Of a stretch of DNA of 64,000 bases, positions 1,916-58,973 are shown piece after piece. Made by a program: the position numbers and the translations under genes. Numbering within the stretch: position 1 is the first letter of the stretch; each line of letters starts with the position of its first letter. The notes below the pieces were generated by a model. It had not been told where the DNA came from and ran no database searches. It saw nothing but the letters and a program-made list of their open reading frames with translations. The stretch is from an uncultured Pseudomonadales bacterium (lineage in GTDB: Bacteria; Patescibacteriota; Microgenomatia; UBA1400; UBA12108), in NCBI GenBank assembly GCA_964349305.1, contig CAYGFS010000002.1:425-64424 (forward strand). Direction: 5' to 3'.

Positions 1916-4168
1916 GTGGCGATGGATTCCAAGTTTGAACATCAAAAAGTAGAAAAACAGATTTACGAAGCTTGGGAGAAAAGTGGGGTGTTTGCGCCTG
2001 ACCCCAAAGCTAAAGGCAAACCATTTACTATTGTCCTCCCCCCGCCCAATGCCTCTGGCAAAATGCACATGGGCAACGTGCTGATGATTGCGATCGAAGA
2101 CCTCATGATCCGCTACCACCGCATGAAAGGCGATCCCACACTTTGGATCCCGGGGACTGATCACGCAGGATTTGAGACCCAAATCACGTATGAGCGCGAG
2201 CTGAAAAAACAAGGAAAGTCTCGGTTTGAGTTTGATAGACAAACTCTGTACCAGAATATTTGGGAGTTTGTACAAAACAATAAGAACGTGATTGAAGGGC
2301 AGATTAAACAGATGGGAGCTTCGGTGGATTGGAGCCGCTATACTTTTACCCTAGATCCTCAAGTAGTTTCAACGGTGTATGGGACGTTTGCGCGGATGCA
2401 CAAAGAAGGTCTGGTATACCGCGATAATTATTTGGTGAACTATTGCCCCAAGTGTGGGACAACATTTGCTGACCTAGAAGTACTACATGAAGAGAGAATC
2501 GGAAAATTGTATTATGTGAAATATGCGGGCGTCTCGGGGGGAGACGGAATAGTTGTAGCCACAACGCGTCCTGAGACGATCATGCTCGACACTCATATCG
2601 CGGTCAACCCGAAGGATAAAAAGCGGGCTAAATATGTTGGGAAAAAAGTGATTAACCCATTGACTTTGGCACCAATGGAGATCATTGCGGATGATTTTGT
2701 TGACGCCAAATTTGGGACGGGTTTTGTCAAACTGACTCCTGCCCACGACAAGAATGATTACGAGGCTGGTAAGAAACACAATCTCCCCTTCATCGTAGGC
2801 ATCGGTATGGATGGCAAGATGACGGACGCCGCGGGGAAATACCAGGGTAAAAGCATCTTTACTGCCCGCAAAGAAGTGGTAGAAGAATTGCATGCACTAG
2901 GAGCCATCGAAAAAATAAATGAAGAATATGCTCAGTCGGTAGCCATATGTTATAAGGGCGGACACGATATCGAGCCCATGATCCTCCCCAATTGGTTTGT
3001 GAGGGTGGAGACACTAAAAAAACCAGCACTTGAGGCGGTGACGTCGGGTAAAGTGAAAATCTACCCCAAATGGAGAGAGGTGACCTATACCAAATGGATG
3101 GAAGAGATGCATGACTGGCCAATTAGCCGACAGGTATCGTGGGGAATCGCGATCCCTGTGTGGTATAAGGTTGGAGAGTCAGCCAATCAGAGTATCAGAA
3201 TTACGTTCCTAACTAAAGATAAAGCGGTGGTGGCTGGAACAATCGGTGAACTATTAAAGCAGTATAGTTTCGAAGAAATTAAGGGTGGATTACAAACACT
3301 TTTAGCGCCAAAAGAGGCACAGGGTCTAGTGAGTGCTGAGTGCCCTGGAGGTGGATATTTGCAGGAAACAGACACTTTTGATACTTGGTTCTCCAGCGGA
3401 CAATGGCCACTGGTGACCCTTAATTACCCTGACAGTGACGACTTTAAAAAATTCTACCCCACGTCGGTGCTCGAGACAGGGTGGGAAATAATCCGGCCGT
3501 GGGTGAGCCGAATGATCATGTTTGGGATTTACCTCACAGGCAAGCCACCATTTGAATATGTCTATCTCCATGGATTGGTTCGTGCCGCTGACGGGCGCAA
3601 AATGAGTAAATCGCTCGGCAATGTGATCAATCCAGATGAATACATGGAGCAGTATGGGGTCGATGCACTGCGGATGGGACTGATTGCAGGGACTGCGACG
3701 GGTAAAGACTTTTCGTTCCCCAAAGATAAAATCGTGGGATACCGCAACTTTGGCAACAAACTGTGGAACATGGCACGGTTTTTCTTGCTTATGCAAGAAA
3801 AAAGCGGAATCACAAATCTCAAATTCTCAAATTCTCAAATTGAGGGACTAACCGAGAGTGATAAAGATATTTTGGAAAAATTGAATGAAACGATTACGAG
3901 TGTGGACGACTTGCTGTCCAAGTTCCGTTTTGCTGAGGCAGCCGATTCGATTTATCACTTTATGTGGGACGAAGTGGCCGCGAAATATCTGGAAGAAATA
4001 AAGAGTCGTGAGGATCTAGGAGTAGCGCTCTGTGTGCTCCGACACATCATTTTGACTGGTCTAAAACTACTCCATCCCTTTATGCCGTTTGTAACGGAGG
4101 CGATTTGGAAAGAAATCAATCCTGATGACGGGATGTTGATTGTAGCCGAGTGGCCTAAAGCAAATTAA
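1916..4168 (+). CDS. valS: valine--tRNA ligase, class I (short form, 750 aa)
   Basis: N-terminal PPPNASGKMHMGN (ValRS-type PPPN...HMGH signature). KMSKSLGN motif. CP1 editing-domain-like insert. Start is GTG 1916 or ATG 1922. Carries an in-frame (CAAATTCT)n repeat at 3811-3846 translated as ITNLKFSNSQIEGL. Confidence 0.85.
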   Translation: MAMDSKFEHQKVEKQIYEAWEKSGVFAPDPKAKGKPFTIVLPPPNASGKMHMGNVLMIAIEDLMIRYHRMKGDPTLWIPGTDHAGFETQITYERELKKQGKSRFEFDRQTLYQNIWEFVQNNKNVIEGQIKQMGASVDWSRYTFTLDPQVVSTVYGTFARMHKEGLVYRDNYLVNYCPKCGTTFADLEVLHEERIGKLYYVKYAGVSGGDGIVVATTRPETIMLDTHIAVNPKDKKRAKYVGKKVINPLTLAPMEIIADDFVDAKFGTGFVKLTPAHDKNDYEAGKKHNLPFIVGIGMDGKMTDAAGKYQGKSIFTARKEVVEELHALGAIEKINEEYAQSVAICYKGGHDIEPMILPNWFVRVETLKKPALEAVTSGKVKIYPKWREVTYTKWMEEMHDWPISRQVSWGIAIPVWYKVGESANQSIRITFLTKDKAVVAGTIGELLKQYSFEEIKGGLQTLLAPKEAQGLVSAECPGGGYLQETDTFDTWFSSGQWPLVTLNYPDSDDFKKFYPTSVLETGWEIIRPWVSRMIMFGIYLTGKPPFEYVYLHGLVRAADGRKMSKSLGNVINPDEYMEQYGVDALRMGLIAGTATGKDFSFPKDKIVGYRNFGNKLWNMARFFLLMQEKSGITNLKFSNSQIEGLTESDKDILEKLNETITSVDDLLSKFRFAEAADSIYHFMWDEVAAKYLEEIKSREDLGVALCVLRHIILTGLKLLHPFMPFVTEAIWKEINPDDGMLIVAEWPKAN

Positions 4169-8422: not shown

Positions 8423-8423
8423 T

Positions 8424-15242: not shown

Positions 15243-15302
15243 ATGTTATGTAGTTTACTATTATGTTGACTAATGGCAATCTGGTGTCATAATTGTTGAC
15301 AT

Positions 15303-16082: not shown

Positions 16083-16894
16083 GCTAACTCGGCGGTACCG
16101 TGAGAATCGAGGATTGTGAACTTTTTTGCTCCAGACCAGAGGTATTCGAATAATTGGCGCTGCATGTCGGCCAGTTCCTGGGAGTGGATCTCGACACAAA
16201 AAATCTCATCGCCAGTGTAGCGATACATGCAGTAGACGTCGTTGTAGATCAAAATTTCAAACTGGAAAGGCTTTTCTGCGGGTGGAATGTGGCGGATCTC
16301 CCAGTATTTCTCCACGATCTCGGGGGTGTCCGTCCAGGCATCGAGATGGGTGGTGCTAGTGAGGGTGCGGCTAACAATTTTGTTAGCGACGAACTTGCGT
16401 CGGAAGTCTTCGGCTTCCTTTTTAGACAAGAACGCATTCATGGTCGAGAGCTCGTAAGTGAGGAGCTCGCCCCTGGCTCTCAGTGAGTTGTGAGTGACTT
16501 GCTTGAGCCCCTCGACGCCGTGGTAATAGAGCACCTGGGACTTGGGGGAAGGATCCTTAAGTGATAACCCGGCGAGTTGAGACTTGAGACTGGGTAGGGA
16601 CGATTTTAATTTATCTAGTTCATGCTCGCGGTCGGACAAGAGGAGGTCGAGCTGATCGGGAGCGAGCGCAGTAAATCTAGTTCCCCTCTCCCCTAGTCTA
16701 GTAATCACTAATCCGCGAGAAATGAGATTGTCCAGTAGGCGGTACACTTTGGTGCGTGCAAGTTTGAGATTGCGAGCAATAGAGAGGGCAGTGTCTCCTC
16801 TACCTGACAATATTTCCAGATATATTTTGGCTTCTAGCTCGCTCACGCCAAACTGAGTAAGGAGAGAGATTGTAGTGTCTATTTTTTCGGACAT
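16079..16894 (-). CDS. TrmB-like wHTH regulator (paralog 3)
   Basis: HTH LTQFGVSELEAKIYLEILSGRGDTALSIARNLKLARTKVYRLLDNLISRGLV. The listed ORF runs to 17032, but the ATG at 16894 (MSEKID...) avoids overlap with the well-supported gene at 16945. Confidence 0.6.
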   Translation of the reverse strand: MSEKIDTTISLLTQFGVSELEAKIYLEILSGRGDTALSIARNLKLARTKVYRLLDNLISRGLVITRLGERGTRFTALAPDQLDLLLSDREHELDKLKSSLPSLKSQLAGLSLKDPSPKSQVLYYHGVEGLKQVTHNSLRARGELLTYELSTMNAFLSKKEAEDFRRKFVANKIVSRTLTSTTHLDAWTDTPEIVEKYWEIRHIPPAEKPFQFEILIYNDVYCMYRYTGDEIFCVEIHSQELADMQRQLFEYLWSGAKKFTILDSHGTAELA

Positions 16895-16944
16895 CAGATT
16901 GAATATTAACAGAATTGTGACAGAATGCAAGAAAAAGGAGGAAT

Positions 16945-17514
16945 ATGGAGCGGATTGGAATAAATGGATATCAACTACTATCTGAGGGATATAGCGGAGA
17001 TAATCTAGGGTTGAATAATGATAGCGTTTCATGGGGGAGTGCTCGAATCCCCGTGGTTGATGGTGGCCTTGATACTCCTCCAGATGGTGTTGAGGAGGTG
17101 AGGCTACTTAATACTGTTCATCCAGATGATGGCTGGATGGATGGCGCAACTATAAAACTTAATCACTCAATTCTCCAACGCTTTTTAGAACATGGGAATC
17201 GGACTTATGTAGAAGAACCTCTAAATGAAGGCGGAGTGGCGATGGGAGTGTCACCAGACGGTGTTAGTTATATGTATATCCCAGATCAAACTTCTAGCCT
17301 GAAGACTAGAAAGATTGGGGGGAGCTGGGTGTATGGTGAGGGATGGGTTCACGGATGGATTAATAGGGGGCGAGGAACGCTAAAATACCTAGAGTGGTGT
17401 ATCCCAAAGTATGAACAGGATGGAACAAGTGAAGTCGTTAACGAGGGTGAGGATGTGGGAGCAGTAATGTTTTGGGGGTTGTGGAGAATGTTGAAAAATG
17501 ATTCTGGTAGATAG
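16945..17514 (+). CDS. hypothetical Gly/Trp-rich protein (189 aa)
   Basis: Consensus RBS AAAGGAGGAAT before the ATG. No known domain. Confidence 0.45.
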   Translation: MERIGINGYQLLSEGYSGDNLGLNNDSVSWGSARIPVVDGGLDTPPDGVEEVRLLNTVHPDDGWMDGATIKLNHSILQRFLEHGNRTYVEEPLNEGGVAMGVSPDGVSYMYIPDQTSSLKTRKIGGSWVYGEGWVHGWINRGRGTLKYLEWCIPKYEQDGTSEVVNEGEDVGAVMFWGLWRMLKNDSGR

Positions 17515-17521: not shown

Positions 17522-17546
17522 AGCCTGCGAGGACAGTCCTCGCAGG
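17522..17546. repeat. perfect palindrome AGCCTGCGAGGACAGTCCTCGCAGG (10-bp stem, 5-nt loop), copy 1
   Basis: Identical 25-mer recurs at 18117-18141. The GAGGACWGTCCTC core recurs at 28619-28636 and 29097-29163. Confidence 0.85.
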
Positions 17547-17610
17547 TTACTCGCAGGTTAAATGTGTTGGTTGGATCTGGGATGGTTGTGGTTGCGAGTC
17601 TTGCCACTTG

Positions 17611-18090
17611 TTAGGAGAGTTTCTTAAGCATCTGCTCGGGTTTGCCCGCGATGTGGATGAGTCCGGTTGGTAGAGCCCCGATTCGTTTATACCAACTCAA
17701 GGGGAAATCGTGGAGGTTTCCGTCAGCAATGCCTTCGAACTCGACTATGCCATATTTCTTTATGGCTGTTTCTACCAGTAATTTGGTCAGGTGGCTGGCA
17801 ATCCCCTTCCTTTGGTGGGTTGGGTGGACAAATAATTCGACTTCATGGATGTGGGGTCCATCGCACCAAGGCTTAATGCTCCCGGCAATTGCACCAACGA
17901 TTTTGTTATCCAGTAGTGCTACGAAGAAAAGGTCGGGTTGGATTTCCCAAAGGTGCGTCAAAAAATCTGTAGCTGCTTTATCTGACCAGTATTCACCGAT
18001 GTCGGCAAGATTAAAGCACTCAGCGTACACATGTCCAACTTCAGCAAGTTGTGATTGTTTAATGATTGAGAATTGTAGTTGATTGGCCAC
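17611..18090 (-). CDS. GNAT family N-acetyltransferase
   Basis: Acetyl-CoA-binding motif ...HQRKGIASHLTKLLVE... (Q/RxxGxG/A). Confidence 0.75.
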   Translation of the reverse strand: MANQLQFSIIKQSQLAEVGHVYAECFNLADIGEYWSDKAATDFLTHLWEIQPDLFFVALLDNKIVGAIAGSIKPWCDGPHIHEVELFVHPTHQRKGIASHLTKLLVETAIKKYGIVEFEGIADGNLHDFPLSWYKRIGALPTGLIHIAGKPEQMLKKLS

Positions 18091-18116
18091 GGAGTGATTA
18101 TAAACCCGTGGGTTTA

Positions 18117-18141
18117 AGCCTGCGAGGACAGTCCTCGCAGG
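18117..18141. repeat. perfect palindrome AGCCTGCGAGGACAGTCCTCGCAGG, copy 2
   Basis: Identical to 17522-17546. Together they bracket the GNAT gene. Confidence 0.85.
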
Positions 18142-18155
18142 CTTCTGTGAATATA

Positions 18156-18572: not shown

Positions 18573-18638
18573 ATAATCTCCTTTGTCCTAATTGTGGACA
18601 ACTAATAATATCTCAGAGTTTACAGCTGATATTAATAT

Positions 18639-19436
18639 GTGTATAATTGGTGTCCAACTGGTGAACATGTGAATAAAAATGACTTAATAATCTACTTGAA
18701 TAAGCTCGGCCTAACCAAGGAGGTAGTAGAGATTTACTTGGATTTACTGGAACACGGGGAGGGTACTCCCCTATCGATATCCAGAAGAACTGGGATAAAT
18801 CGGACCAAGGTATACCGGGAAATCGAGGAGATGGCGAGGGAAAAACTTCTGACCCTGCAAATAGGCGACAACACTACGATAGTCTCCCCTGCCCCGATGG
18901 AGCGGATAGGGGCAATGCTTAAGCAAAAACAGCTCGCAGTGGCGGAGCTGTCCAAAAACTGGAGCGATGTCACCGAGTCTCTGGCTCAAATTCAAGTTGT
19001 GCAGAAGGCCGAAACCAGAGTGAAGTACTACAAAGGCAAAGAGGGAATTGAACAGATGGTGTGGAACGTGCTGAAGGCAAAAGACGAAATAGTGGGCTAT
19101 ACCTTCCGCGATCTGTCGCACTTTGTGGGAGCCAAGTTTATGGGCGAATTTGTAGAGGAATTTAAAAGGCGTAACCTGTTCATGAGGGATATCTATGGTG
19201 ATGAATATCTGGAAAATAAGCCGACCGATAACAACTGGGCGGGTAAAATAAGCTCGCGTTACTTACCAAAAGAAATTCTTGCCATCCCCCACCAGATGGA
19301 TATTTATGACGAGGTAGTGACATTTTATAGCTGGAATGAGGGCGAGGTATGGGGGACAGAGATACACAATCCCAAAGTGGCTCAGATGCAGAAACAGTTG
19401 TTTGAACTGGCGTGGGAGAAGGCAAAAAGGGTTTAG
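18639..19436 (+). CDS. TrmB-like wHTH regulator (paralog 4)
   Basis: HTH LNKLGLTKEVVEIYLDLLEHGEGTPLSISRRTGINRTKVYREIEEMAREKLL. Inverted repeat TTGTCC-N7-GGACAA lies upstream. Confidence 0.6.
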   Translation: MYNWCPTGEHVNKNDLIIYLNKLGLTKEVVEIYLDLLEHGEGTPLSISRRTGINRTKVYREIEEMAREKLLTLQIGDNTTIVSPAPMERIGAMLKQKQLAVAELSKNWSDVTESLAQIQVVQKAETRVKYYKGKEGIEQMVWNVLKAKDEIVGYTFRDLSHFVGAKFMGEFVEEFKRRNLFMRDIYGDEYLENKPTDNNWAGKISSRYLPKEILAIPHQMDIYDEVVTFYSWNEGEVWGTEIHNPKVAQMQKQLFELAWEKAKRV

Positions 19437-19858: not shown

Positions 19859-19917
19859 GCGCGAAATAATACGATATTTACAGAGAGATGTATAATTGTT
19901 GTGTATAATGTGCACAG

Positions 19918-20718
19918 ATGAATAAATTGATTAGTGATTATATTGTAGGACTAGGGTTTAGCCAGGAGGCGGGTAAGCTATACGGCGGCCTGGTAGAAAA
20001 AGGACCGCTGACCATCCTAGAAGCGTCACGGGAGAGTGAGATCGAGCGGACGGCGCTTTACCGGCTAGTTGAGGATTTGACGGCCAAAGGACTGATTGAA
20101 GAGGTCCTGGAGCATAAATCTAGGCGGGTACGGGCGGTGGAACCCGCGAAAGTAAAGCTGCTTGTGGAACAAGAGAAAAAGAGAGTGGGTGAGCTAGAGA
20201 ATAGCTTTACCAGTTTTGAAGCGGCGGTGGGACAAATACCTGATCTAAAGAGTACTCAGGTGCGATACTACCGTGGGACAGCGGGGATTAAACAAATCAT
20301 GTGGAATGAAACCAAAGCTAAGAAGGAGCTCCTCGGCTATACCTATCGCAATATGGAGGAGGTGGCGGGGGTTCCCTTTTTCAAGAGTTGGGTGGCAGAG
20401 ATTGAGAAGAGAGGAATCGTTTCGCGGGACTTGCGGAGCGACACATTTCTCTCCAGTATGGAGGCGCCGGGATTTGAGCGAATACATATTGACAAATCGA
20501 TGTGGCGATACTTGCCAGAAAAGGTGATGTGCCTGAGTCATAATCTGGATATTTATAATGATGTCGTGGCGATCTACTACTGGGAAGAGAATGACGTGTT
20601 TGGCGTAGAGATCCAAAATCAAAAGATGGCGGATACCCAGAGGAGTATTTGGGAGACGATGTGGAAACTAGCAGAAAACTACAAGTTGCCGAGGAAGTAT
20701 CGACTACCTAGGAGATAG
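19918..20718 (+). CDS. TrmB-like wHTH regulator (paralog 5)
   Basis: HTH IVGLGFSQEAGKLYGGLVEKGPLTILEASRESEIERTALYRLVEDLTAKGLIE. C-terminal ...SIWETMWKLAENY. Confidence 0.6.
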   Translation: MNKLISDYIVGLGFSQEAGKLYGGLVEKGPLTILEASRESEIERTALYRLVEDLTAKGLIEEVLEHKSRRVRAVEPAKVKLLVEQEKKRVGELENSFTSFEAAVGQIPDLKSTQVRYYRGTAGIKQIMWNETKAKKELLGYTYRNMEEVAGVPFFKSWVAEIEKRGIVSRDLRSDTFLSSMEAPGFERIHIDKSMWRYLPEKVMCLSHNLDIYNDVVAIYYWEENDVFGVEIQNQKMADTQRSIWETMWKLAENYKLPRKYRLPRR

Positions 20719-21617: not shown

Positions 21618-21998
21618 TCAACTTCTCTCCCCAAACATGAGATGATAACCATTACAATCCTGGATAGTAAACTCCTGGGAATCGTAGTTGGTGGAATGGA
21701 GGGATTGAACCACTTTTACCATATCTTTAACTCTCCCCCACTCCGAGCGAATGTCGTCAACTTCTAGATATAAAACGAGACTACCTCCCATTTTTACTTT
21801 AGAAAGCTCTGGTATTTCTTTGGCAAAGTCATGTCTGGAGAAGAGCATTATCTCCACATTGCCTCGCTTGATGCGAGCGAAGGTGGGAGCACTAGACTCT
21901 GGAGAAATAAAAACCACCTCAAAACCCAACGTGGTTTTGTACCACGCGAGAGTTTTTGGAAGATCTTCGACGAGTAGTTCTGGAGTAAGAGACAACAT
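21618..21998 (-). CDS. VOC/glyoxalase-family protein
   Basis: Sequence ...DLPKTLAWYKTTLGFEVVF...NGYHLMFGE matches the VOC fold pattern. Confidence 0.55.
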   Translation of the reverse strand: MLSLTPELLVEDLPKTLAWYKTTLGFEVVFISPESSAPTFARIKRGNVEIMLFSRHDFAKEIPELSKVKMGGSLVLYLEVDDIRSEWGRVKDMVKVVQSLHSTNYDSQEFTIQDCNGYHLMFGERS

Positions 21999-22038
21999 GG
22001 TGTTAACTATACGCTGGTTCTGGTTGTATACTCAAGAA

Positions 22039-22524
22039 ATGAAAAAGAGTACGGGTTTTTTAGAGAGTTTAGAGAAATATAGCTGGAAAGCGATAGGGCG
22101 CAGTCCCCTGCCCCAGTACTGGCCGTGGATAGGAGTAGCTCTGGTAATAATGATTATCCTGGCATCAGTAGTAAATAAGCCAGGCAGCGTGGTAGGAGCG
22201 GAAAGTGTGAGAGAAATCATTGAGTTGGCTGCGGGGAGAGGAGATTATCAAACAGCAAGAGATTTATTAAACCATTACACCAATAAACCAATGAACAATT
22301 TGGTACTGGGGGCGGAGAGTGAGCTGGAAGACAAGGTTTATCCCGAGCGGGTCGTGGAGAGAAGAATTGCAGAACTTGAAACCAAGTTAGAGGAATATCC
22401 GGAAAACAAAGAGGTTTATTTGATGCTGTCGAGTCTATACGGCCAATTGGGATACTCTGATACTGCTAGCGAATATCGTGAAAAGGCTAGGATTTTGGAT
22501 CCGAATGGAGTGGAATTTAAGTAA
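22039..22524 (+). CDS. membrane-anchored TPR-like repeat protein
   Basis: N-terminal TM (WPWIGVALVIMIILASVV). C-terminal TPR-like helices (...EVYLMLSSLYGQLGYSDTASEYREKARILDP). Internal ATG 22039 chosen, because the 5' part of the listed ORF is antisense to the VOC gene. Confidence 0.45.
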   Translation: MKKSTGFLESLEKYSWKAIGRSPLPQYWPWIGVALVIMIILASVVNKPGSVVGAESVREIIELAAGRGDYQTARDLLNHYTNKPMNNLVLGAESELEDKVYPERVVERRIAELETKLEEYPENKEVYLMLSSLYGQLGYSDTASEYREKARILDPNGVEFK

Positions 22525-22528
22525 TGGC

Positions 22529-22586
22529 AGAGGTTCCGATCTATCTTTCGCTTTGCTGCAGACCGCTTAAAGATCGGAACCTAGGG
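22529..22586. repeat. ~50-bp hairpin element GGTTCCGATCT-N27-AGATCGGAACC, copy 1 (between convergent genes)
   Basis: 11-bp perfect stem. Near-identical copy (3 mismatches) at 28917-28975. Confidence 0.8.
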
Positions 22587-26770: not shown

Positions 26771-26805
26771 TTCTCAAATAATTCTTTGATTCTCAAATTT
26801 ATTAT
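26752..26805. repeat. (CAAATTCT)n octamer-repeat element, degenerate copy
   Basis: AAATTCTCCAATTCTCAAATAATTCTTTGATTCTCAAATT at the rnhA start/flippase stop junction. Confidence 0.6.
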
Positions 26806-28030
26806 TTGAAAAGTATAGCAGAGCAAGAAAGATAAATAATTCGGTCAACCCAGTGTTGACGGCCGCAGCGGGGGCACCAAAACCTGGAACAAATACGAGG
26901 TTAAGTCCAACATTGAAGAGGGCGGCCAGGACATATATGCCCAAGACAACTTTGTCGCGCCCCCCTGCGATTAACCCCCACATGAGGGGGGCGGTGACAT
27001 AAAAGAAGGGGAGGGCAAAGGAGAGAATTTTTAATACTTCAATGGATATGGTGAGCCCGGGTTTCACCAGGCTGACAAGAGGCGCAATAAACCATAAAAT
27101 GACCGCGACAACCACGCCGATGCCGGCCATCGACCAGGCGGTGCGGGAAATGAGAGATGATTGGGGGTTGGTTTTGGAAGACTGAAGAAAAATCGGATAA
27201 ATAGAGTTCATGGCAAAAACGGGGAGAACCAGAATTACGTCAAAAATGCGATAAGCAAAGCCGTATTGCCCCACCTCGCTGGAAGCGCGAAAAACTCCGA
27301 GCACAACGGTGTCAAACTTGCTGGCCAAAACCGAGGCGATAAGAATAAGCCCAAGTGTTAGAGAGCGACGAAGGAGGGGGAGGACAAATTTCAAATCATA
27401 AATTCTCAAATTCTCAAATTGGGATCGAGGCAGTAATAGTAGAGAAGATATTGCCATGGCCAAATAGCCGGCGGTGTTGGCGAACACAAGATTGGGGATG
27501 GTGGGGGAGTGAGAAAGGAAATAGAGAGTGAGGATGGTAGCGAGGAGTGAGCCTATGACGACAGAAATAGTGGATTTCCAGTAGGACAGGTTGTACTGGA
27601 ACCAAGCGTTGGTGGAGGTATAGATGCCCTGGAACATGATGGCCAGGCTGCCGAGCCAAAAAATGGATTTGACTTGCGGTGAATATCCACCTGGGAGGCG
27701 AATAATTATGAGGTTGAGCACAATAATTGCCAGGAGGGAGAGGACAAAGCGGGCAAGGAGGATGTGCGACAGATTGTGCTGCATTTGAGCGGGCGACTTG
27801 GCGGAGCGCAACCCCTCTGCGTTGAGTCCAAAGTCAATGGCGGTGAAGCCAACAGCAACCAATATGAGGATTTTGGTCAGGTCACCATAAAGATCGAGTC
27901 CCGCTAGGCGAATGGTGAAGTAGGTGGTGAGCAGGGTGAGGCCGGCGCCAAAAAATTTGGCGACTAGCTGGGCAAATGTGTTACTGGCGATGGTTTTGAA
28001 CATGAGAGTATTGTATCGGCTAATCAGCAA
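26774..28030 (-). CDS. polysaccharide-biosynthesis/oligosaccharide flippase (Wzx/MOP-like)
   Basis: 12-TM protein with Wzx-like N-terminus (...TIASNTFAQLVAKFFGAGLTLLTTYFTIRLAGLDLYGD...). Mid-gene in-frame repeat insertion is translated as RSQFENLRIYDLK. Confidence 0.55.
   Translation of the reverse strand: MLISRYNTLMFKTIASNTFAQLVAKFFGAGLTLLTTYFTIRLAGLDLYGDLTKILILVAVGFTAIDFGLNAEGLRSAKSPAQMQHNLSHILLARFVLSLLAIIVLNLIIIRLPGGYSPQVKSIFWLGSLAIMFQGIYTSTNAWFQYNLSYWKSTISVVIGSLLATILTLYFLSHSPTIPNLVFANTAGYLAMAISSLLLLPRSQFENLRIYDLKFVLPLLRRSLTLGLILIASVLASKFDTVVLGVFRASSEVGQYGFAYRIFDVILVLPVFAMNSIYPIFLQSSKTNPQSSLISRTAWSMAGIGVVVAVILWFIAPLVSLVKPGLTISIEVLKILSFALPFFYVTAPLMWGLIAGGRDKVVLGIYVLAALFNVGLNLVFVPGFGAPAAAVNTGLTELFIFLALLYFSNNKFENQRII
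27385..27421. repeat. (CAAATTCT)n octamer-repeat element inside the flippase CDS
   Basis: TCAAATCATAAATTCTCAAATTCTCAAATTG. Confidence 0.8.
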
Positions 28031-28051
28031 ATCGGTTAGTCGGTAAGTCGG

Positions 28052-29398
28052 CTATTCAGATTTTCGGATTGTAAAAAAATATAACACAATGATAAATAAG
28101 CCTTGAGGAGAGGTAAGGAGATAGTGGTCGAAGAGAAGAAGGGGGAGTAGGGGAACAATTAATCTCAAATCATAAATTCTCAAATTCTCAAATTGAGAGC
28201 GCAGGGTATACAAAATCGCGAGGAGTCCGAAAATACCAAACCAGGAGAGAAACAGTGTGAACGAATTGTGGTCGGGCTGGAGGAGGCGCATTTCAGGTGA
28301 GATAGTGGGGTAGGTAGAGATACTAGCTTGGGCGCCGGTGCCAAAAACGGGGAAATGAGAAATTGCCTTCAAGGACACCCCTTGAAGGTCGAGGCGCTCT
28401 GAGATAGAGAGATCAGAGCGAGGGGGAGAGAGGAGGGGGGGGTAAATAAACCAATAAACCAATAAACCAATAAAAAAATATAAAGCTCTGGATTTGAAAT
28501 TTTTGAAAAAATAAAAGGGAATAATGATGCCAAAAAGAGATAGGGCAGCGGCGCGGGACTGGGTAAGAAAAATTAGGGAAGCAGTGAGTGTGGTGGAGAG
28601 CCAAAGGAGCCGAGTCGTCGAGGACTGTCCTCGCAGGCGGAGGAGAATCAACAAAACAACAACTGACCATCCAGCGAGGACGTTGGGGTGACCAAAGGTA
28701 CCATAAGCTCTCAGTACCACTTCGTGTATAAACGAGCCAAGGGCGACGGCTGGAGAGCCCACAGATACACTGCGCTCGCCAAGGTAGTACATGAGGCCTC
28801 CAACTGAGTGGCCGAGAAATACTTGGATGAGAGAGAGCACGAGCTGGAAGAGGAGTGAGAGGGTCAAAATTAATCTCAAATCATAAATTCTCAAATTCTC
28901 AAATTGAGTAGCCACTAAGGTTCCGATCTGTCTTTCGCTACGCTGCAGACCGCTTAAAGATCGGAACCCGGGGAACAGGGCGACAACAAAGAATAGATAC
29001 AGTAAAAAATGAAGTGACCAGGAGAGGGTGGAGAGGGGGTTGTCAGAATAGAGGAGATTGGTCAGGAGGATGGGGGTCAGGGTACCCATGAGGACTGTCC
29101 TTTCGGTTGCCACCGAGCCCTTCTCGGCTTGCAGCCGGGAATTCCTTCTAAGGACAGTCCTCTGGAGCAGGTCAGACCCTAAAAACAGAATAACTAAAAT
29201 GTCTAAGAAATAAATAGTGGGGGAGAGATAATCGATGCGGATGCCATAGACTAGGCTGGTGAGCGGCCAAAAATGAAAACCCAACTGGGTGGCGGAGAAG
29301 AAAATAATCAGGCCGACGAGAAAATTAGGCGGATTTAATTGAGATAAATAAGCGCCTATCTTGCCCAAAGCCCTCGGAATAGCTAGTGAATTCTGCAT
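28052..29398 (-). CDS. O-antigen ligase/polymerase (Wzy_C)-like membrane protein carrying multiple in-frame repeat insertions
   Basis: Wzy_C-like motifs FLTQSRAAALSL and QPDHNSFTLFLSWFGIFGLL. Start taken at ATG 29398, which still overlaps jag by ~74 nt. The ORF reads through at least five repeat elements without a stop. Confidence 0.45.
   Translation of the reverse strand: MQNSLAIPRALGKIGAYLSQLNPPNFLVGLIIFFSATQLGFHFWPLTSLVYGIRIDYLSPTIYFLDILVILFLGSDLLQRTVLRRNSRLQAEKGSVATERTVLMGTLTPILLTNLLYSDNPLSTLSWSLHFLLYLFFVVALFPGFRSLSGLQRSERQIGTLVATQFENLRIYDLRLILTLSLLFQLVLSLIQVFLGHSVGGLMYYLGERSVSVGSPAVALGSFIHEVVLRAYGTFGHPNVLAGWSVVVLLILLRLRGQSSTTRLLWLSTTLTASLIFLTQSRAAALSLFGIIIPFYFFKNFKSRALYFFIGLLVYWFIYPPLLSPPRSDLSISERLDLQGVSLKAISHFPVFGTGAQASISTYPTISPEMRLLQPDHNSFTLFLSWFGIFGLLAILYTLRSQFENLRIYDLRLIVPLLPLLLFDHYLLTSPQGLFIIVLYFFTIRKSE
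28157..28197. repeat. (CAAATTCT)n octamer-repeat element
   Basis: AATTAATCTCAAATCATAAATTCTCAAATTCTCAAATTGAG. Confidence 0.85.
28866..28907. repeat. (CAAATTCT)n octamer-repeat element
   Basis: Near-identical to 28157-28197. Confidence 0.85.
28917..28975. repeat. ~50-bp hairpin element GGTTCCGATCT-N27-AGATCGGAACC, copy 2 (inside the O-antigen-ligase-like ORF)
   Basis: Matches 22529-22586 with 3 mismatches. Confidence 0.8.
29097..29163. repeat. ~67-bp compound palindrome GAGGACTGTCCT ... AGGACAGTCCTC with inner CCGAG/CTCGG hairpin
   Basis: 12-bp terminal arms are reverse complements. Shares its core with the GNAT-flanking palindromes. In-frame in the ligase-like ORF (translated ...QRTVLRR...ERTVLMG). 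Confidence 0.7.
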
Positions 29399-29777
29399 CG
29401 TCCTTGAGCATGAGGTGGACTTGGCGCCTTTCGGTGGCAGAAAGAGGAGGGAGGACACAAGCGCCACCAATTTCTCTGGCCTGGTTTTTGGCGTTTTCAA
29501 CCATAGATTCAAGCGTGGTCAAGCGGCGGGCGCGGTAACCGGCGACGTCGAGGAGAACGTGGCGATGGACTTCACCCTGGTTGAGCATGAGAGAAATGAT
29601 CAACTGGAGTGAGTCGAGGGTGGAGGCAAAGCGGCCGATCAAGCGGCCGGCTTCCAGCTCGTCGATACCCACGGTAATAGTAATGAGCTCTTCGGTTTCT
29701 GCGACTTTGATTTGGTCGGGGTTGATGTCAAAAAGCTTGAGCAGGGTCTCGATTTTGACTAGATCAATTGGCTGCAT
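29325..29777 (-). CDS. jag: Jag/KhpB RNA-binding protein (KH + R3H)
   Basis: KH-like ...GRLIGRFASTLDSLQLI.... R3H-like ...ATERRQVHLMLKDDAEFTSYSEG. Conserved position downstream of yidC. Confidence 0.75.
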   Translation of the reverse strand: MQPIDLVKIETLLKLFDINPDQIKVAETEELITITVGIDELEAGRLIGRFASTLDSLQLIISLMLNQGEVHRHVLLDVAGYRARRLTTLESMVENAKNQAREIGGACVLPPLSATERRQVHLMLKDDAEFTSYSEGFGQDRRLFISIKSA

Positions 29778-30518: not shown

Positions 30519-30564
30519 AATAAAGTTTTCCGGTTTTGCAGTATTCCAGTTTTCCAGTAGAAAA

Positions 30565-34102: not shown

Positions 34103-34114
34103 GGTGGAAAAGCT

Positions 34115-34237
34115 TGTCGGGCGAAAATTTGTGAGCTCCGGTATTATTTTGGATAGAATACAAAACACTTACCTACTGACGTGTCGCGTATTTTGTTTAA
34201 AGGAAAAATAATAGTGTCGCCAAAATTTTACCCGACA
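34115..34237 (+). mobile_element. ~123-bp MITE-like element with ~16-bp terminal inverted repeats (copy 1)
   Basis: TTGTCGGGCGAAAATTT ... AAAATTTTACCCGACAA termini. About 95% identical to 61403-61526 in the same orientation. The internal sequence resembles a promoter (TTGTGA-N17-TAGAAT). Confidence 0.6.
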
Positions 34238-34249
34238 AATTTCTCATTT

Positions 34250-37200
34250 CTATTTTATGGGATCAGTAGTGGCTGGTTGTTGGAAAATCGGTCTCCCAGA
34301 CTGCTGTGCGTCTGGAGGCATTTCTCGGGTACTGTCATGCTCGATGTGCTGTGATTCGGTGGGTGCGGCGACAGTGGTCGCAATCGGTTCGACGGTGGGG
34401 GCGGCGGCGGGTTGAGGTGGGGTGAGAGCGGAGGCGCGGGACTGGCTGGCGACCAGCTTGTCGGCGAAGGCCCTTTGGTGGTCCAGAGTCTCCTGAGGGT
34501 TCGTGGTAATGAGACTGTGTTCTTCAGGTGAGGCGACTACTTTCATAGCCACGTGGTTTTGGCCGGCGAAGAAGAGGGCCTCGCCAACTTCGGCAGTCAG
34601 CAAGAGGTGGCGTTCTCCCTGGGAGAGGAAGAACGTGGTCGCGAGCTTTTCGATGGCGCTACTGCTTTGTTTCATGAGAACCTGGAGCGAAGAGTTGCTG
34701 ACGATAGCTTTACCGTGATCGCTCTTTAAGAAATCTTCCACGTCTTGAGTGATAGTGGTCAGGCCCAGGAAATATTTACGAGCCCGCTTGGCGATGCCAT
34801 AGAGGAAGGTGGCGGAGTCCTCGGATTTCATGAGATACCACGCCTCATCGACGACCAGGAGACGGCGCTTGAGATCCCTTTTGACCTTGGTCCAAATGTA
34901 GTCGAGAATGATAAAAATGGCAGTGGGGCGGAGCTCGTCGGTCAAGTTTTTGATACCAAAGACGGTGAGCTGATTGCCAAAATTGACATTGGACTTTTGG
35001 GAGAAAATTCCCTGGAAAGAACCCTTAACATATTTTTCGAGCCGGTCGGCCAGACCACGAGCAACTGCCTCTTCCATACCATTTAAGACCTTGTAGAGAT
35101 CTTCCATGAGCGGGGGCTCGAGCTTGTGGGTGGTGGCGTCGCGATTAATGCCTTTCATCTGGTAGGTCATAACCAGGGCGCGATCGAGGAGGGCTTCTTC
35201 TTGGGGATTCATGTCTCCCATCATAATTTTGAGGAGGGAATGGAGAGAAATAATTTTCATGGCCAGCTCGTTTTCGTCGGGCTCGGCCATTTGAGGAAGC
35301 TCAAAAGGATTGATGCGGTTGGGAGAACTAAAAGAGAAGTCAATATAAGTACCGCCGATGGCGTCGGAGAGTTTGCGATACTCGTCTTCGGGATCGATGA
35401 CGATGACTTCGGTGTCGAAAAGGAGGGAGCGCAAGATTTCCAGCTTGACCATATAAGAGTTGTGGACAAAAATCCCCCCTTGGCCAGCCAGGAAAACCTT
35501 GTTTTTAACCTGCAAATCATACACATATGGGTTGTTGTAGGGAACGAGAACTATAGAGGTGATGGGGTCCCAGATGATTTGACTATTGGCTAGTTGATTA
35601 AGATTGGACAAGACAGTGTCGGTCTCTAGAGGAATCTTTAGATTTAGTTTTTTTACTTGCTGGAGACAGGTCTTGATGTGTTTAGAGAGCTCTTTTGACG
35701 ATGGATTGTATTTCCCATTTTTAATATTTATAAAGTTTTGACCTGGTGAAATTTTGTAAGGTAGAAATATGGTTTCGTGGAGTTTTTTGAACAGTGGAGC
35801 AAGCCCAGGAATAAATTCAACATTGGTGTTTGCGGAGATATTTAGTGTGTCTTGGATAATTGTATTTAATTTACCTTGTTTACCCCCATGTACAAAAGAG
35901 ATGTTTTTAGCAAAATTTAGCAGGTTGTTTTGGCCCGAAATTGAGACTCTCCAATAGGGCTGCTTGATCATGGTCGAGTTGGAGGTCCTTTTTTGTGTGG
36001 GATGGATGCGTGCGTGAATATCAAAACGATTGAAAAGTAGACAGAGAGAGTTAATAAGTGATTTGGACTTTGAGACGGCGGTAACCTGTCTGGCCTCTAC
36101 TCCTCCATCTCCATCGAGATATCCGCCAATCATATTGGCAAGACATTGATCGTCGAGGTTAATGGCCCAGGAGGGGAATCGCTTAGTTGAAGCAGTGTGT
36201 CCAACCCCCATTGACTCAATGACGTGTTTAAAAATAGACGAACTAACTCTAATGTCGGTTGGAGTAATAAAATATGGGAAATTTATATCTTTTAATATAT
36301 TTTCTACCTTATCCCGAATTTCTTGATCTCTGTTTGTAATAATAACAACCGCTGCGGCAGTAGACCCTTCAGCGATATAGAGCCCAAGAAGCCAGGCTAG
36401 ATCTGGAGTAATAGTCAGGGTTGTTGGTAGAAGATGATTGGTGCTGTTTTGAATTTGTATTTGAGCTGTTTGGGGGAGTGGTGAACTAACTCTCGATTTT
36501 AATGAATCATAAAGAGCGATGGGGAAAGCTCTACCACCAAAATATTTTTCAGCGTAAGGGCCAGTATATCCAGAGTTTTTTATCCAATCTTTAGCTCCGA
36601 CAATATGAACCCTCATGTCCTTTGCGAGAGCGTCTAATAAATTTAGAGTCGTCGGCTTTCCTTTAACCGGAATAGATCTTGCAATTGGCATATATTCCCC
36701 AACTTTGGCGTTTTTGGCAATGATAGCTTTGATTGCTCCATTCTCGAGTGTTAAGATCTGGTGATCTGGAGTGACAGTTATGGATCTACCAGACTTTGTG
36801 GTGATATGAAGAAGTTCTTTATAGGGATTGAGTTTACGCGCAACTACTTCAACCTTGCTCCACTGGGGTACTAGGTCCGCGTTGTAACTCAGAACTTCTA
36901 ACTCAGGATTTGTAATAGCTTCGCTTTCACCCACCCTGGTTATTGATTTTGAATCTTTGAAGATTTGGTCGACGTATTGACCAATCTTTATCTCAGAAAC
37001 AGTCTCTTTTTGTCGGATCAGGGTGGGCTCGTCGTATCCTAAGCATTTACCGGAACCCGACTTGGCGAAGACCACCATATTGGCATTTTCGAGCGTGAAA
37101 CGATCAAAAACGACGAGCGAGTCATTGTGTTCGTTGATGCCATACATGAGACCCTCATTGGCGGTGAGCTCAGAGCTGGTGAAGGGGAAGGTGGTGGCAA

Positions 37201-37858
37201 GACTGGTCGTGTCCATGTTGCGGTTCATTTTGAGCTTGTCGAGGCCGGTGGGGAGAGTAGTTTTGAAGCCATCCTCGATTTGGAGGCTGGCGGTTTTGGC
37301 CACGATTAGCAGCGCGCCGAGAGCGGACTTGATGTGATTGGTGACGCGATCAAGAATGTCTTTTTTGTCATCCCGGATGGTGATGTAGAGCCCAAACTGG
37401 AAAAAGCGCTCGGCCCCCTTGGCAAGCTGTTCTTGGAGCGAGCGAGCGTCTTCGAGCTTGACCTGCGTGTCGATGTTGATAATGCGGCCGCGCTGAATAT
37501 CTCCCTGGAGCTCGGCCTCCATTTCGGCGATTTTGCGGCGGAGATCTTCGATGACCCCCTTACCGTCGACAGGATAAATAAACATAGAAATAGAGAGGGA
37601 GTGGGGGAAGTTGATCAGAGGACTAAGCCAGTTGGCGTTGACGAAACGAGGGTATCCTGCCACAAAGAGGGTGCGGTAGTAAGTGTCGTTGATTTTGATG
37701 TCGGAGAAATCCACCTCGATGGCTTCGGGGGCAATAATATCTTTGACATTGGTGGTGCCCTGTGACAAAACGGAGACAGAAGGAGAGACTTGGGGTCCAG
37801 AGTCTTTGGGGTCGGTTTTTTTGCCACCAAAAAGAGATGGCAGGTTTAGTTTGGGCAT
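34250..37858 (-). CDS. virB4: T4SS ATPase VirB4/TrbE-like, interrupted in the P-loop by a 529-aa intein
   Basis: Extein N-part ends ...MVVFAKSGSGK (Walker A). Extein resumes SYMVKLEILRSLLFDTEVIVIDPEDEYRKL... with the VirB4 C-terminal ATPase region (...RRLLVVDEAWYLM..., ...GLTTITQDVEDF...). Mature protein ~673 aa. Confidence 0.8.
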   Translation of the reverse strand: MPKLNLPSLFGGKKTDPKDSGPQVSPSVSVLSQGTTNVKDIIAPEAIEVDFSDIKINDTYYRTLFVAGYPRFVNANWLSPLINFPHSLSISMFIYPVDGKGVIEDLRRKIAEMEAELQGDIQRGRIINIDTQVKLEDARSLQEQLAKGAERFFQFGLYITIRDDKKDILDRVTNHIKSALGALLIVAKTASLQIEDGFKTTLPTGLDKLKMNRNMDTTSLATTFPFTSSELTANEGLMYGINEHNDSLVVFDRFTLENANMVVFAKSGSGKCLGYDEPTLIRQKETVSEIKIGQYVDQIFKDSKSITRVGESEAITNPELEVLSYNADLVPQWSKVEVVARKLNPYKELLHITTKSGRSITVTPDHQILTLENGAIKAIIAKNAKVGEYMPIARSIPVKGKPTTLNLLDALAKDMRVHIVGAKDWIKNSGYTGPYAEKYFGGRAFPIALYDSLKSRVSSPLPQTAQIQIQNSTNHLLPTTLTITPDLAWLLGLYIAEGSTAAAVVIITNRDQEIRDKVENILKDINFPYFITPTDIRVSSSIFKHVIESMGVGHTASTKRFPSWAINLDDQCLANMIGGYLDGDGGVEARQVTAVSKSKSLINSLCLLFNRFDIHARIHPTQKRTSNSTMIKQPYWRVSISGQNNLLNFAKNISFVHGGKQGKLNTIIQDTLNISANTNVEFIPGLAPLFKKLHETIFLPYKISPGQNFINIKNGKYNPSSKELSKHIKTCLQQVKKLNLKIPLETDTVLSNLNQLANSQIIWDPITSIVLVPYNNPYVYDLQVKNKVFLAGQGGIFVHNSYMVKLEILRSLLFDTEVIVIDPEDEYRKLSDAIGGTYIDFSFSSPNRINPFELPQMAEPDENELAMKIISLHSLLKIMMGDMNPQEEALLDRALVMTYQMKGINRDATTHKLEPPLMEDLYKVLNGMEEAVARGLADRLEKYVKGSFQGIFSQKSNVNFGNQLTVFGIKNLTDELRPTAIFIILDYIWTKVKRDLKRRLLVVDEAWYLMKSEDSATFLYGIAKRARKYFLGLTTITQDVEDFLKSDHGKAIVSNSSLQVLMKQSSSAIEKLATTFFLSQGERHLLLTAEVGEALFFAGQNHVAMKVVASPEEHSLITTNPQETLDHQRAFADKLVASQSRASALTPPQPAAAPTVEPIATTVAAPTESQHIEHDSTREMPPDAQQSGRPIFQQPATTDPIK
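35459..37045 (-). mobile_element. intein (Hint domain + LAGLIDADG homing endonuclease) within virB4
   Basis: Begins with Cys after GSGK (CLGYDEPTLI, block A). Block B ...TPDHQIL. LAGLIDADG motifs LLGLYIAEGS and IGGYLDGDGG. Ends VYDLQVKNKVFLAGQGGIFVHN, followed by the +1 Ser. Confidence 0.85.
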
Positions 37859-37866
37859 AGTACCAA

Positions 37867-37905
37867 TAGTATAGCAGGGAAATGTGGGTTGTAATCTTGG
37901 TTAAC
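37867..37905 (-). promoter_or_regulatory. conserved promoter-like element GGTTACAAC-N13-TATACT placed 7-10 nt upstream of the virB4 ATG (leaderless-type)
   Basis: Minus-strand reading ...GGTTACAACCCACATTTCCCTGCTATACTATTGGTACTATG. The same motif lies upstream of the 38582 start, and a TATAAT variant upstream of the 52659 start. Confidence 0.45.
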
Positions 37906-38585: not shown

Positions 38586-38777
38586 TATTAGTATAACAGG
38601 GAAATATATGTTGTAACCCTGGTTTCCATTTTTTGTTTTTGTGAAGCTCGCTTCAGGAAAAATATCCTCGGGATTTGATTACTCGTCATTTTTCTTGATA
38701 ATGCCCTGCCTGCGCAGGCAGGCTCGACTCTACAATGCACAAAAAACATAAACCAGGATTACTTTACTGATCATTTA
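38586..38777. repeat. repeated intergenic module (promoter-like element + ...TTTTTTGTTTTTGTGAAGCTCGCTTCAGGAAAA... + ...CTACAATGCACAAAAAACATAAACCAGGATT)
   Basis: Shares about 110 bp in two blocks with 52664-52861. This copy has an extra 18-bp perfect palindrome CCTGCCTGCGCAGGCAGG. Confidence 0.75.
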
Positions 38778-53567: not shown

Positions 53568-53571
53568 AAGT

Positions 53572-53907: not shown

Positions 53908-53909
53908 AT

Positions 53910-54272: not shown

Positions 54273-54274
54273 AA

Positions 54275-54616: not shown

Positions 54617-54620
54617 ATGT

Positions 54621-58263: not shown

Positions 58264-58973
58264 CGTTGGAAAAAACAAAAATACCCAAACACGTAGCCAT
58301 TATTATGGATGGAAATCGGAGGTGGGCGAAGAAACGAGGACTTGCGGCCGTGGCGGGACATGCATTTGCGGTTGATTCGGTAACAGAACAACTGATTGAG
58401 CGAGCGGGTGAACTGGGAATAAAATATTTAACACTATGGGCATTTAGTACGGAAAATTGGAAGAGAGATAAGGATGAAGTGGATGGGCTAATGAATTTGT
58501 TTCGCAAAGCCCTTATGACCAAAGTGCAGAAATTTATTGAGAAGGGAGCTAAGCTACAGATGATAGGCGACATGTCCCGATTTGCACCAGATATCCAAGA
58601 AGGGATGAAAAAAGCGATGGCGGCAAGTGCCCAAAACACCAAAATTACGGTGACGTTTGCACTGAATTATGGGGGAAGGGATGAGATTGTGAGGGCGGTA
58701 AATCGGTTAATGGTTGACCGCAAAAGTTCCGATCACTCGCCTATAATCACGCAAGGATCGGAACTAGAACAATACCTAGATACGGCAGGAATGCCGGATC
58801 CAGATCTGATCATAAGAACGGGAGGAGAGCAGAGGCTGTCGGGGTTCCTCATGTGGCAGGCGGCATATAGTGAATTGTATTTTACGGAGATATTGTTTCC
58901 GGATTTTGGGCCGGAACAACTAGATGGCGCAATTGAAGAGTTTCAAAGTAGGCAGAGACGATTTGGGAAGTAG
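58260..58973 (+). CDS. uppS: undecaprenyl-diphosphate synthase (cis-prenyltransferase)
   Basis: HVAIIMDGNRRWAKKRGL. ...TLWAFSTENWKRDKDEV. C-terminal RTGGEQRLSGFLMWQAAYSELYF. Confidence 0.9.
   Translation: MTLEKTKIPKHVAIIMDGNRRWAKKRGLAAVAGHAFAVDSVTEQLIERAGELGIKYLTLWAFSTENWKRDKDEVDGLMNLFRKALMTKVQKFIEKGAKLQMIGDMSRFAPDIQEGMKKAMAASAQNTKITVTFALNYGGRDEIVRAVNRLMVDRKSSDHSPIITQGSELEQYLDTAGMPDPDLIIRTGGEQRLSGFLMWQAAYSELYFTEILFPDFGPEQLDGAIEEFQSRQRRFGK

Follow-up and report, generated by a model that had tools for sequence, protein, structure and literature searches.

How can a gene that carries six repeat elements within 1.35 kb still read as a single open frame? The gene in question, a predicted Wzy_C-type membrane enzyme, lies at positions 28052-29398 on the minus strand of a 64-kb stretch of DNA (the window, analyzed at its full length), which, to judge from its sequence, comes from a Woesebacteria-like bacterium of the candidate phyla radiation (CPR). 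The initial annotation had offered two answers. The first, an integral membrane enzyme that tolerates repeat-encoded loops, is supported by homologues, synteny, conserved columns, a 12-helix fold and the placement of the repeats in loops. The second, a decaying gene whose frame has survived by chance, we reject on the grounds of its conserved columns, synteny and intact orthologues. [quoted passage not shown]

Six repeats in one open frame

All six elements initially listed in this frame are present, with coordinates slightly corrected. They are five copies of three dispersed families (A twice, B once, and C twice, as a compound and a short form) plus an array, D. The features are given below with the predicted location of each encoded peptide relative to the transmembrane (TM) helices.

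28052..29398, minus strand: host gene, a predicted Wzy_C / WaaL-fold 12-TM lipid-linked-glycan ligase or polymerase, 448 aa from ATG 29398
29090..29162, minus strand: element C, compound, a 73-nt hairpin with 13-nt perfect terminal inverted repeats, each with a GAGGACNGTCCTC core; peptide QRTVLRRNSRLQAEKGSVATERTVL, aa 79-103, cytoplasmic loop TM2-TM3
28901..28973, minus strand: element B, a GGTTCCGATCT...AGATCGGAACC hairpin with its stem-loop at 28919-28968 (arms 28919-28929 and 28958-28968); peptide FRSLSGLQRSERQIGT, aa 144-160, cytoplasmic loop TM4-TM5
28872..28904, minus strand: element A, copy 1, a 33-nt octamer-array core ATTTGAGAATTTGAGAATTTATGATTTGAGATT, its unit written (CAAATTCT)n; peptide FENLRIYDLRL, aa 165-176, cytoplasmic end of the TM4-TM5 loop, running into TM5
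28617..28640, minus strand: element C, short, one arm degenerate (palindrome 28620-28637); peptide LRGQSS, aa 253-261, cytoplasmic loop TM6-TM7
28445..28474, minus strand: array D, (TTTATTGG)x3.8 on the coding strand, 100% perfect (Tandem Repeats Finder, TRF); IGLLVYWFIY, aa 309-318, in TM9
28161..28193, minus strand: element A, copy 2; peptide FENLRIYDLRL, aa 402-413, cytoplasmic loop TM10-TM11

The compound palindrome, first placed at 29097-29163 with a length of 67 bp, is the 73-nt element at 29090-29162; its DNA folds at -25.7 kcal/mol (z = -6.3) and is open in 4 of 6 frames. The short C copy shares 20 nt of 100% complementarity with intergenic palindromes at 17522 and 18119. Element B, whose inverted repeats measure 11-12 nt, is 82% identical over 73 nt to an intergenic copy at 22514-22586 and folds with z = -2.1, while DNA folding of element A gave no significant fold (z = -1.5). 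The array D had been counted among the inserts as (CCAATAAA)3, which does not hold: its product is residues 309-318 of TM9, and homologues have the same length there. Conversely, we dropped the idea that D is a chance low-complexity match, as the array is perfect and has three relatives in the window (at 22268, 31147 and 55814), though it makes no net insertion.

The repeats exceed chance expectation, with five matches to the GAGGACNGTCCTC core against 0.11 expected and eight matches to an A 20-mer against 0.01 expected. They are also concentrated: the Wzy_C gene makes up 2.1% of the window, yet holds 6 of its ~17 repeat copies (binomial p about 9e-7).

The minus-strand frame is stop-free over 486 codons (28052..29512), the mechanical ORF extending to a TTG at 29512, and a TTG at 29368 offers an alternative start to the ATG. 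The assignment to Wzy_C proposed in the initial annotation holds up in an HMM search, since Pfam PF04932 matches residues 309-434 significantly and above its gathering score (E=8.5e-9, 35.8 bits vs a cutoff of 31.7). A search of 5.8 billion proteins returned 285 homologues, and PF04932 is present in nearly all of the 120 listed. The best homologue reaches E=6e-145 at 61% BLASTP identity (alignments up to 66%), and the named matches are metagenome-assembled genomes (MAGs) of Microgenomates or Collierbacteria.

An AlphaFold2 (AF2) model built from 89 sequences (pLDDT 80.7, pTM 0.85) has 12 hydrophobic helices. In a Foldseek search against the PDB its sole significant match was WaaL (7tpg_B; E=1.1e-4, probability 1.00, TM-score 0.46/0.50), the second-best match having E=0.74; a profile search of PDB sequences matched none, and the link to WaaL thus comes from the fold search alone. 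WaaL has been described as having 12 TM helices plus a long loop in the periplasm with conserved Arg and His (PMC10920833). In our model, the outward loop TM9-TM10 spans 61 aa (aa 318-378) and contains R335, Q374, P375, D376 and H377, the last within QPDHN, all invariant in the 89 sequences. Of 101 columns with at least 90% conservation among the other 88 sequences, the protein retains 100, which puts it in 15th place of 89. These comparisons indicate that 28052-29398 is a functional, vertically conserved gene and not a decaying one.

CPR bacteria are not known to produce lipopolysaccharide; lipid A-core is therefore an unlikely acceptor, and the protein is probably an "O-antigen ligase" in name only. 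The neighboring Wzx-like flippase fits any Wzx/Wzy-type surface-glycan pathway.

Where the inserts fall was assessed by comparing loop lengths in the 89 sequences, an expansion being defined as more than 8 aa above the median and counted in the 88 homologues. Lengths vary in cytoplasmic loops 2, 4, 6 and 10 (sd 7.1, 7.6, 13.3 and 4.5) and far less in the outward loops (sd 0-3.4, where 3.4 stems from N-terminally truncated sequences and the other five are at most 1.8). Expansions number 15, 17, 25 and 5 in loops 2, 4, 6 and 10 (62 in total), one in loop 8 and none in the outward loops, and inserts of up to 67 aa occur in the TM6-TM7 loop of homologues. Lysine and arginine account for 20.2% of residues in even loops vs 5.6% in odd loops of the 20 shortest, insert-poor homologues. 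From this positive-inside bias, and from the alternation with long conserved outward loops as in the WaaL topology, we infer that the even-numbered, insert-bearing loops are cytoplasmic. The K/R-rich repeat peptides would fit such loops, and placing them outside would be expected to disturb the topology.

The initial annotation had held that the TM helices remain between the inserts. This is borne out for five copies, which fall in four loops, and fails for array D, which lies inside TM9 and adds no residues. AF2 confidence is lowest at the inserts, with block means of 55-73 for compound C and B/A1 and 74-82 for A2 and short C. In the model, all net insertions of the Wzy_C gene appear to sit in cytoplasmic loops, and the catalytic outward loops with the conserved Arg and His appear untouched.

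The same peptide families occur in different loops of different orthologues, as seen when the loops of the homologues are listed. The compound C peptide (RTVLRRNSRLQAEKGSxAxERTVL) is found in orthologue loops 2, 4 and 6, and both the B peptide (QFRSLSGLQRSERQIGT) and the A peptide (FENLRIYDLRL) in loops 2, 4, 6 and 10. A further family, GSDLLRKSWPxAKMFSRTSKxxSETRSDP, occupies all four cytoplasmic loops, and at least four more bring the peptide families to at least eight. At sister loci, a ~90-nt element encoding GSDLLRKSW occurs two or three times per Wzy gene and is also intergenic, at rpmH/rnpA, downstream of L25 and at VirB4/dnaN. Hairpin copies of sister loci are up to 95% identical between genomes, and the short GTTCCGATC hairpin occurs in both Wzy and flippase there. 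Across ~69 kb of sister DNA, Wzy and flippase are the only genes with internal hairpin elements.

Survival by chance is the wrong null for such a frame. An open frame is to be expected, because purifying selection acts on the gene, the elements are stop-free in 2-6 of 6 frames and A takes up 11-12 codons. In B, the genic copy reads CAG at the very position where the intergenic copy has a TAG. We propose that the elements spread as selfish, non-autonomous DNA, that only in-frame, stop-free copies in permissive segments would survive purifying selection, and that the cytoplasmic loops of the Wzy_C enzyme may be the main "safe harbour" of this genome. There, the elements would add or replace about 60 residues, extending loops or helices on the cytoplasmic face with basic segments of poor order, and insertions may later be trimmed or overwritten. 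A selection filter combined with a safe harbour would yield many independent insertions alongside an intact frame, and later trimming or overwriting would leave some copies without net length gain.

Copies in the window and in sister genomes

On the same strand, the genes run from rnpA through yidD, yidC, jag (KH/R3H), wzyC and the Polysacc_synt flippase to an RNase-H-like gene, DUF4012 and L25. The rnpA-yidD-yidC-jag-wzyC-flippase operon is bordered on its other side by the divergently oriented dnaA and dnaN, which places the Wzy_C gene beside the replication origin. The comparison with sister genomes that the initial annotation had suggested shows the locus to be coding and syntenic there, the order around the Wzy_C gene being shared by four sister contigs. 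The two direct neighbors are as follows.

29325..29777, minus strand: jag (KH + R3H), its 3' end overlapping the Wzy_C start by 74 nt (ATG) or 44 nt (TTG 29368)
26774-28030, minus strand: Polysacc_synt (Wzx-type) flippase gene by Pfam, neighbor of the Wzy_C gene

The overlap with jag, initially given as ~74 nt, is correct for the ATG at 29398. Annotated starts of orthologues give overlaps of 74, 44 or 0 nt, several using a TTG-type start, and the overlap is ordinary operon packing. Octamer arrays also occupy the spacers of this operon: (AGTTTTCC)x4.4 at 30524-30558 lies between yidD and yidC, and (TCGGTAAG)x2.5 at 28032-28051 in the 21-nt spacer from the Wzy stop to the flippase start. Arrays of period 8 prevail in the TRF output of the entire window. 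An inverted repeat in dnaA (31709/31802) was considered as a further insert and rejected, one arm lying in the conserved VVGGSNNFA motif.

Element A has six copies in the window (about 1 per 10 kb) and a lower density in sister MAGs. Four of them lie outside the Wzy_C gene.

27387..27419, minus strand: element A in the flippase gene, read as FENLRIYDLKF; orthologous copies in L006 and L021
26747..26779, minus strand: element A over the junction of the flippase stop and the RNase-H-like start; orthologous junction copy in L006
30786..30818, minus strand: element A over the rnpA stop and yidD start
3808..3840, plus strand: element A in a valyl/class-I tRNA synthetase gene (1853-4165), in the opposite orientation relative to its host gene

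The ValS copy encodes ITNLKFSNSQIE in the stretch from the catalytic to the anticodon-binding domain, and the orthologous copy in L044 is identical over 33/33 nt. A scan for the exact pattern, with one genome per species, returned 51 matches at 49 loci. About nine Woesebacteria/Microgenomates MAGs account for nearly all of these, and sister MAGs have 4-14 exact copies each. Alignment of 53 copies reveals a sharply bounded 33-nt core, ATTTGAGAATTTGAGAATTTATGATTTGAGATT, with unrelated flanks. Among the 49 sister-MAG copies, 38 are within ORFs of at least 150 aa and are read in four frames; their hosts include MnmA, PRPP synthetase (PrsA), RecF, ValS, class II RNR, FolD, TrxB, Pth and Fpg, as well as TruB, RluD, ComEC and Lgt. 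The TrxB copy is a clean 12-codon insertion relative to PDB 5m5j.

The reading frame of A goes with the type of host. FENLRIYDLRL is confined to the membrane proteins Wzy and flippase, where a TM helix always follows directly, while other frames are used elsewhere, the soluble enzymes having reverse frames (I[ST]NHKFSNSQI, SQIxNSQILK, ILKSQILKFSN). In FolD (L025/L034 vs L027) and RNR (L018 vs L039), A occupies the same site in different reading frames, and the FolD element is shifted by one 8-nt unit between genomes, with its flanks changed to compensate. We ruled out the octamer arrays being phase-variation (contingency) tracts, since they lie in essential housekeeping genes with a conserved number of units.

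Families B and C have copies outside the Wzy_C gene as well, three of them intergenic and given without strand.

22514..22586, unstranded: element B, intergenic copy between the convergent genes 21709-22524 and L25 (22587-23282)
17522..17546, unstranded: short C palindrome, intergenic, downstream of a GNAT acetyltransferase gene; fold z = -4.8
18119..18143, unstranded: another short C palindrome, on the opposite flank of that GNAT gene
58726..58764, plus strand: B-like short hairpin GTTCCGATC...GATCGGAAC in UppS (58182-58973), read as SSDHSPIITQGSE

In the window, B is represented by two copies and one B-like hairpin, and C by four loci, two of them within the Wzy_C ORF, to which L072 adds an intergenic homologue of compound C (2316-2388). 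The UppS hairpin aligns gap-free to the solved UPPS 1f75, with no added length, and a large membrane protein of L013 contains the SSDHSPIITQGSE peptide two times. In each of the genomes examined, a hairpin element is present in the spacer downstream of L25, its family varying from genome to genome (for example L173 7172-7259 and L174 16673-16776). The GNAT gene is bracketed by two nearly identical 25-nt perfect palindromes (17522-18143) that lie 572 nt apart, and looks like a cassette delimited by REP-like hairpins.

Searches for further copies of these families returned little. A metagenome scan with the generic pattern AGGACNGTCCT-N35-65-AGGACNGTCCT was unspecific and gave mostly unrelated matches; among the matches listed, only L072 is a true homologue of the 73-nt element. 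The insertion sequence (IS) adjoining it was rejected as the parent of compound C, as its 500-aa transposase-like ORF has inverted repeats of its own (~619-632 and 2240-2253) and the element lies outside them. Other proteins carrying the B and C peptides were sought with a concatenated query, and no candidate shared three 5-mers with it. Scans of viral contigs for A, B and C had no matches and thus gave no phage link, and Rfam and tRNA scans of the window found nothing.

Several MAGs with Woesebacteria-type genes, synteny and element A are titled "uncultured Pseudomonadales bacterium" (L003, L005, L006, L009, L012, L014 etc.; records CAYFZD01, CAZCUC01, CAYILS01 and CAZBFT01), and these record titles look taxonomically wrong.

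The window has other features of its own. A VirB4/TraG-like P-loop ATPase of 1216 aa (34253-37900, minus strand) is interrupted by an intein with a LAGLIDADG homing-endonuclease domain; its orthologues in L172 and L174 have 614-645 aa and no intein. A 140-nt repeat, 89% identical between its two intergenic copies (34106-34245, after dnaN, and 61393-61532, after a SpoIID-domain gene), had no Rfam match at the gathering threshold and could be a small RNA or regulatory module. Another intergenic pair (38614-38760 / 52697-52818), with segments 94-95% identical, flanks a cluster resembling a type IV secretion system (T4SS); the second copy contains inverted arms at 52698-52719 and 52797-52818. At 52865-54950 (minus strand) stand four or five small paralogous genes in tandem, three of which match T4SS_pilin (PF18895). 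This pilin array adjoins genes for PrgI-like and very large unannotated proteins, in a T4SS-like, origin-adjacent cluster that is conserved in sister genomes. Five TrmB-family helix-turn-helix regulator genes lie within 13 kb (7520-8428, 15300-16079, 16082-17107, 18636-19433 and 19909-20715), unusually many for a small genome.

Weighing the explanations

Several observations weigh against selfish repeats filtered by selection as a complete account. The A copies of loops 4 and 10, the short C of loop 6, the TM9 array D and the UppS hairpin all add little or no length, which would not be expected of simple insertion. Identity among orthologous A copies is 94% (280/297 nt) vs 71% for their 150-nt coding flanks, a contrast that is partly due to ascertainment by the exact-pattern scan, although identity still reaches 82-97% in A copies that were not ascertained in this way; selfish DNA decaying neutrally would not be expected to leave copies better conserved than their flanks. 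Pfam scans of about 50 ORFs found no transposase, RAYT (REP-associated tyrosine transposase) or IS200/605 gene in the 64-kb window. Neither target-site duplications nor empty sites could be resolved, as identity to the closest orthologue is just ~61-66%. The fold match to WaaL is moderate (TM-score 0.46-0.50). Finally, it is from sequence that we infer the repeat segments to be transcribed and translated as part of the protein, and this too counts on the negative side.

At two sites the orthologues carry arrays of differing 7- or 8-nt units, with total length conserved.

Loop 10 site: window (TTTGAGAA)x4; L029 (ACTTTACG)x4; L001 (CTACGAT)x4; element A at the same site in L003 and L021
TM9 site: window (TTTATTGG)x3.8; L003 and L029 (TCATTGG)x4.5; L001 (CTACCAT)x5

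These misfits point to insertion followed by trimming, to gene conversion between copies, or to a DNA-level function. The octamer arrays (A, D and their variants), and possibly the hairpins, might have been written by a templated "overwrite", for which homing, gene conversion and slippage-driven replacement are candidates, or be kept by a DNA- or RNA-level function. We hold this to be unlikely; it would explain the 94% vs 71% contrast, the frame differences, the array swaps and the length-neutral replacement.

On the rival that survives best, the repeats, A above all, would be maintained cis-acting DNA or RNA motifs (a protein-binding array, or an uptake or recombination signal) or the product of homing or conversion overwrite, and their placement in loops would be secondary. 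Besides the higher identity of A than of its flanks, it can draw on positions outside the search pattern (-1 and +28 to +31) being invariant or nearly so in the 53 copies, and on the result that allowing 3 mismatches raises the (TTTGAGAA)x3 matches just from 53 to 65. The FolD and RNR sites are used in different frames, several copies replace sequence at unchanged length, and 5 of the 6 window A copies lie within 4.7 kb of the dnaA-side origin region. However, the density of A is low, about 1 per 10 kb and less in sister MAGs, and several unrelated families behave alike. Variant arrays at the A site of some orthologues speak for turnover more than constraint, and the conservation signal is partly ascertainment bias. 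On balance we think this rival distinctly unlikely, and prefer selfish repeats under a selection filter.

A role for the peptides themselves is very unlikely. Under this rival, the repeats would be selected protein modules for cytoplasmic interaction or membrane anchoring, as the amphipathic, basic FENLRIYDLRL might suggest; the confinement of this frame to Wzy and flippase, before a TM helix, and the match of the K/R-rich peptides to the positive-inside rule are in keeping with it. Yet the same DNA is found in intergenic spacers and in four frames giving unrelated peptides, a given loop is insert-free in many orthologues, and AF2 confidence is lowest at the inserts. The selection filter explains the pattern of frame vs host equally well.

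The idea of a pseudogene in decay, its frame open by chance, is still harder to entertain. It takes its appeal from the unusually high repeat load in 1.35 kb, but has to face the 486-codon stop-free frame, the 100 of 101 conserved positions (15th of 89), the conserved synteny, intact orthologues with comparable inserts in dozens of genomes, and the confinement of inserts to one class of loops. The weakest rival, in which RNA processing, or ribosomes bypassing the hairpins, would remove the elements ahead of translation or in its course, has in its favor that B and C form stable hairpins, but is scarcely credible given that the host frame stays open to either side of every genic copy examined, which would be needless if the copy were removed, and that the genic B copy lacks the stop present in the intergenic one.

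Comparison with known repeat systems

Protein-coding repeats have so far been regarded as a peculiarity of Rickettsia. The CPR case is independent and denser: these are RPE-like protein-coding repeats in a new phylum, with new element types that include a non-palindromic octamer array. The four cytoplasmic loops of a single conserved membrane enzyme share at least eight peptide families derived from repeats, which cycle among them, and the 33-nt element A is embedded in many essential enzymes in four frames. The structural rule is here unusually clear, with inserts on the cytoplasmic face only. If our explanation is true, these genes provide a natural insertion-tolerance map of the WaaL/Wzy fold that is useful for engineering and for topology models; translated repeats may contaminate CPR alignments, gene calls and "novel domain" claims; and it becomes a testable question how streamlined, tiny genomes retain highly conserved intragenic repeats. 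Full-text literature searches returned no description of such elements in CPR.

DNA uptake sequences (DUS) of Neisseria and uptake signal sequences (USS) of Pasteurellaceae resemble element A in being short motifs shared between species, intragenic, read in several frames, placed in tolerant segments and better conserved than their flanks. Known DNA uptake sequences occur at about one per kb. With six A copies in 64 kb, the density here is about 10-fold or more lower, and there are many families.

The host protein itself shares with WaaL (7TPG) the HMM match, 12 TM helices, the long outward loop with invariant Arg/His and an adjoining Wzx-type flippase. It differs in having no PDB sequence match, a TM-score of ~0.5 and cytoplasmic loops expanded by repeats.

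REPs and their hairpin-forming doublets (REPINs) offer a parallel to C and B. Short C is a 23-25-nt near-perfect palindrome in gene-flanking spacers, as in REPs; compound C is an inverted-core doublet that folds into a long hairpin, as in REPINs; and B, together with elements of sister genomes, lies in spacers of convergent genes like terminator-proximal REPs. REPs are, however, extragenic by definition, whereas half or more of the copies here are inside ORFs, and no RAYT/Y1 transposase gene lies within the 64-kb window.

Bacterial MITEs are known to create in-frame fusions, as do Coxiella QMITE1, intragenic ERIC and Correia elements (PMC5896051, PMC10969869). The elements described here are likewise small and presumably non-autonomous, have terminal inverted repeats in compound C and B and would contribute peptides from inside ORFs. 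They differ in being far denser within one gene and in that no parent IS or target-site duplication was identified, the L072 transposase having other inverted repeats.

The RPEs, repeats that are translated in frame as part of unrelated genes (Ogata et al. 2000 Science 290:347; 2002 Genome Res 12:808; PMC10969869), share the most with this locus. Here as there, several short dispersed families lie in frame within unrelated functional genes, with intergenic copies too, and form extra surface or loop segments compatible with fold and function in a small-genome, host-dependent bacterium; we found both a multi-copy dispersed family and in-frame, stop-free copies in unrelated functional ORFs. The phylum is unrelated (CPR/Woesebacteria), and by description, on which the comparison with RPEs was made, there is no evident sequence relationship; homology is not to be expected, as the hosts belong to different phyla. 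The elements measure 25-95 nt vs about 100-150 bp for RPEs, and family A consists of four octamers in a non-palindromic array (A and D are direct arrays, B and C palindromes). Some copies replace sequence, and orthologous copies are more conserved than their flanks. Up to six copies occur in one gene, and one membrane-protein family is a recurrent sink, with 62 expansions in 88 homologues.

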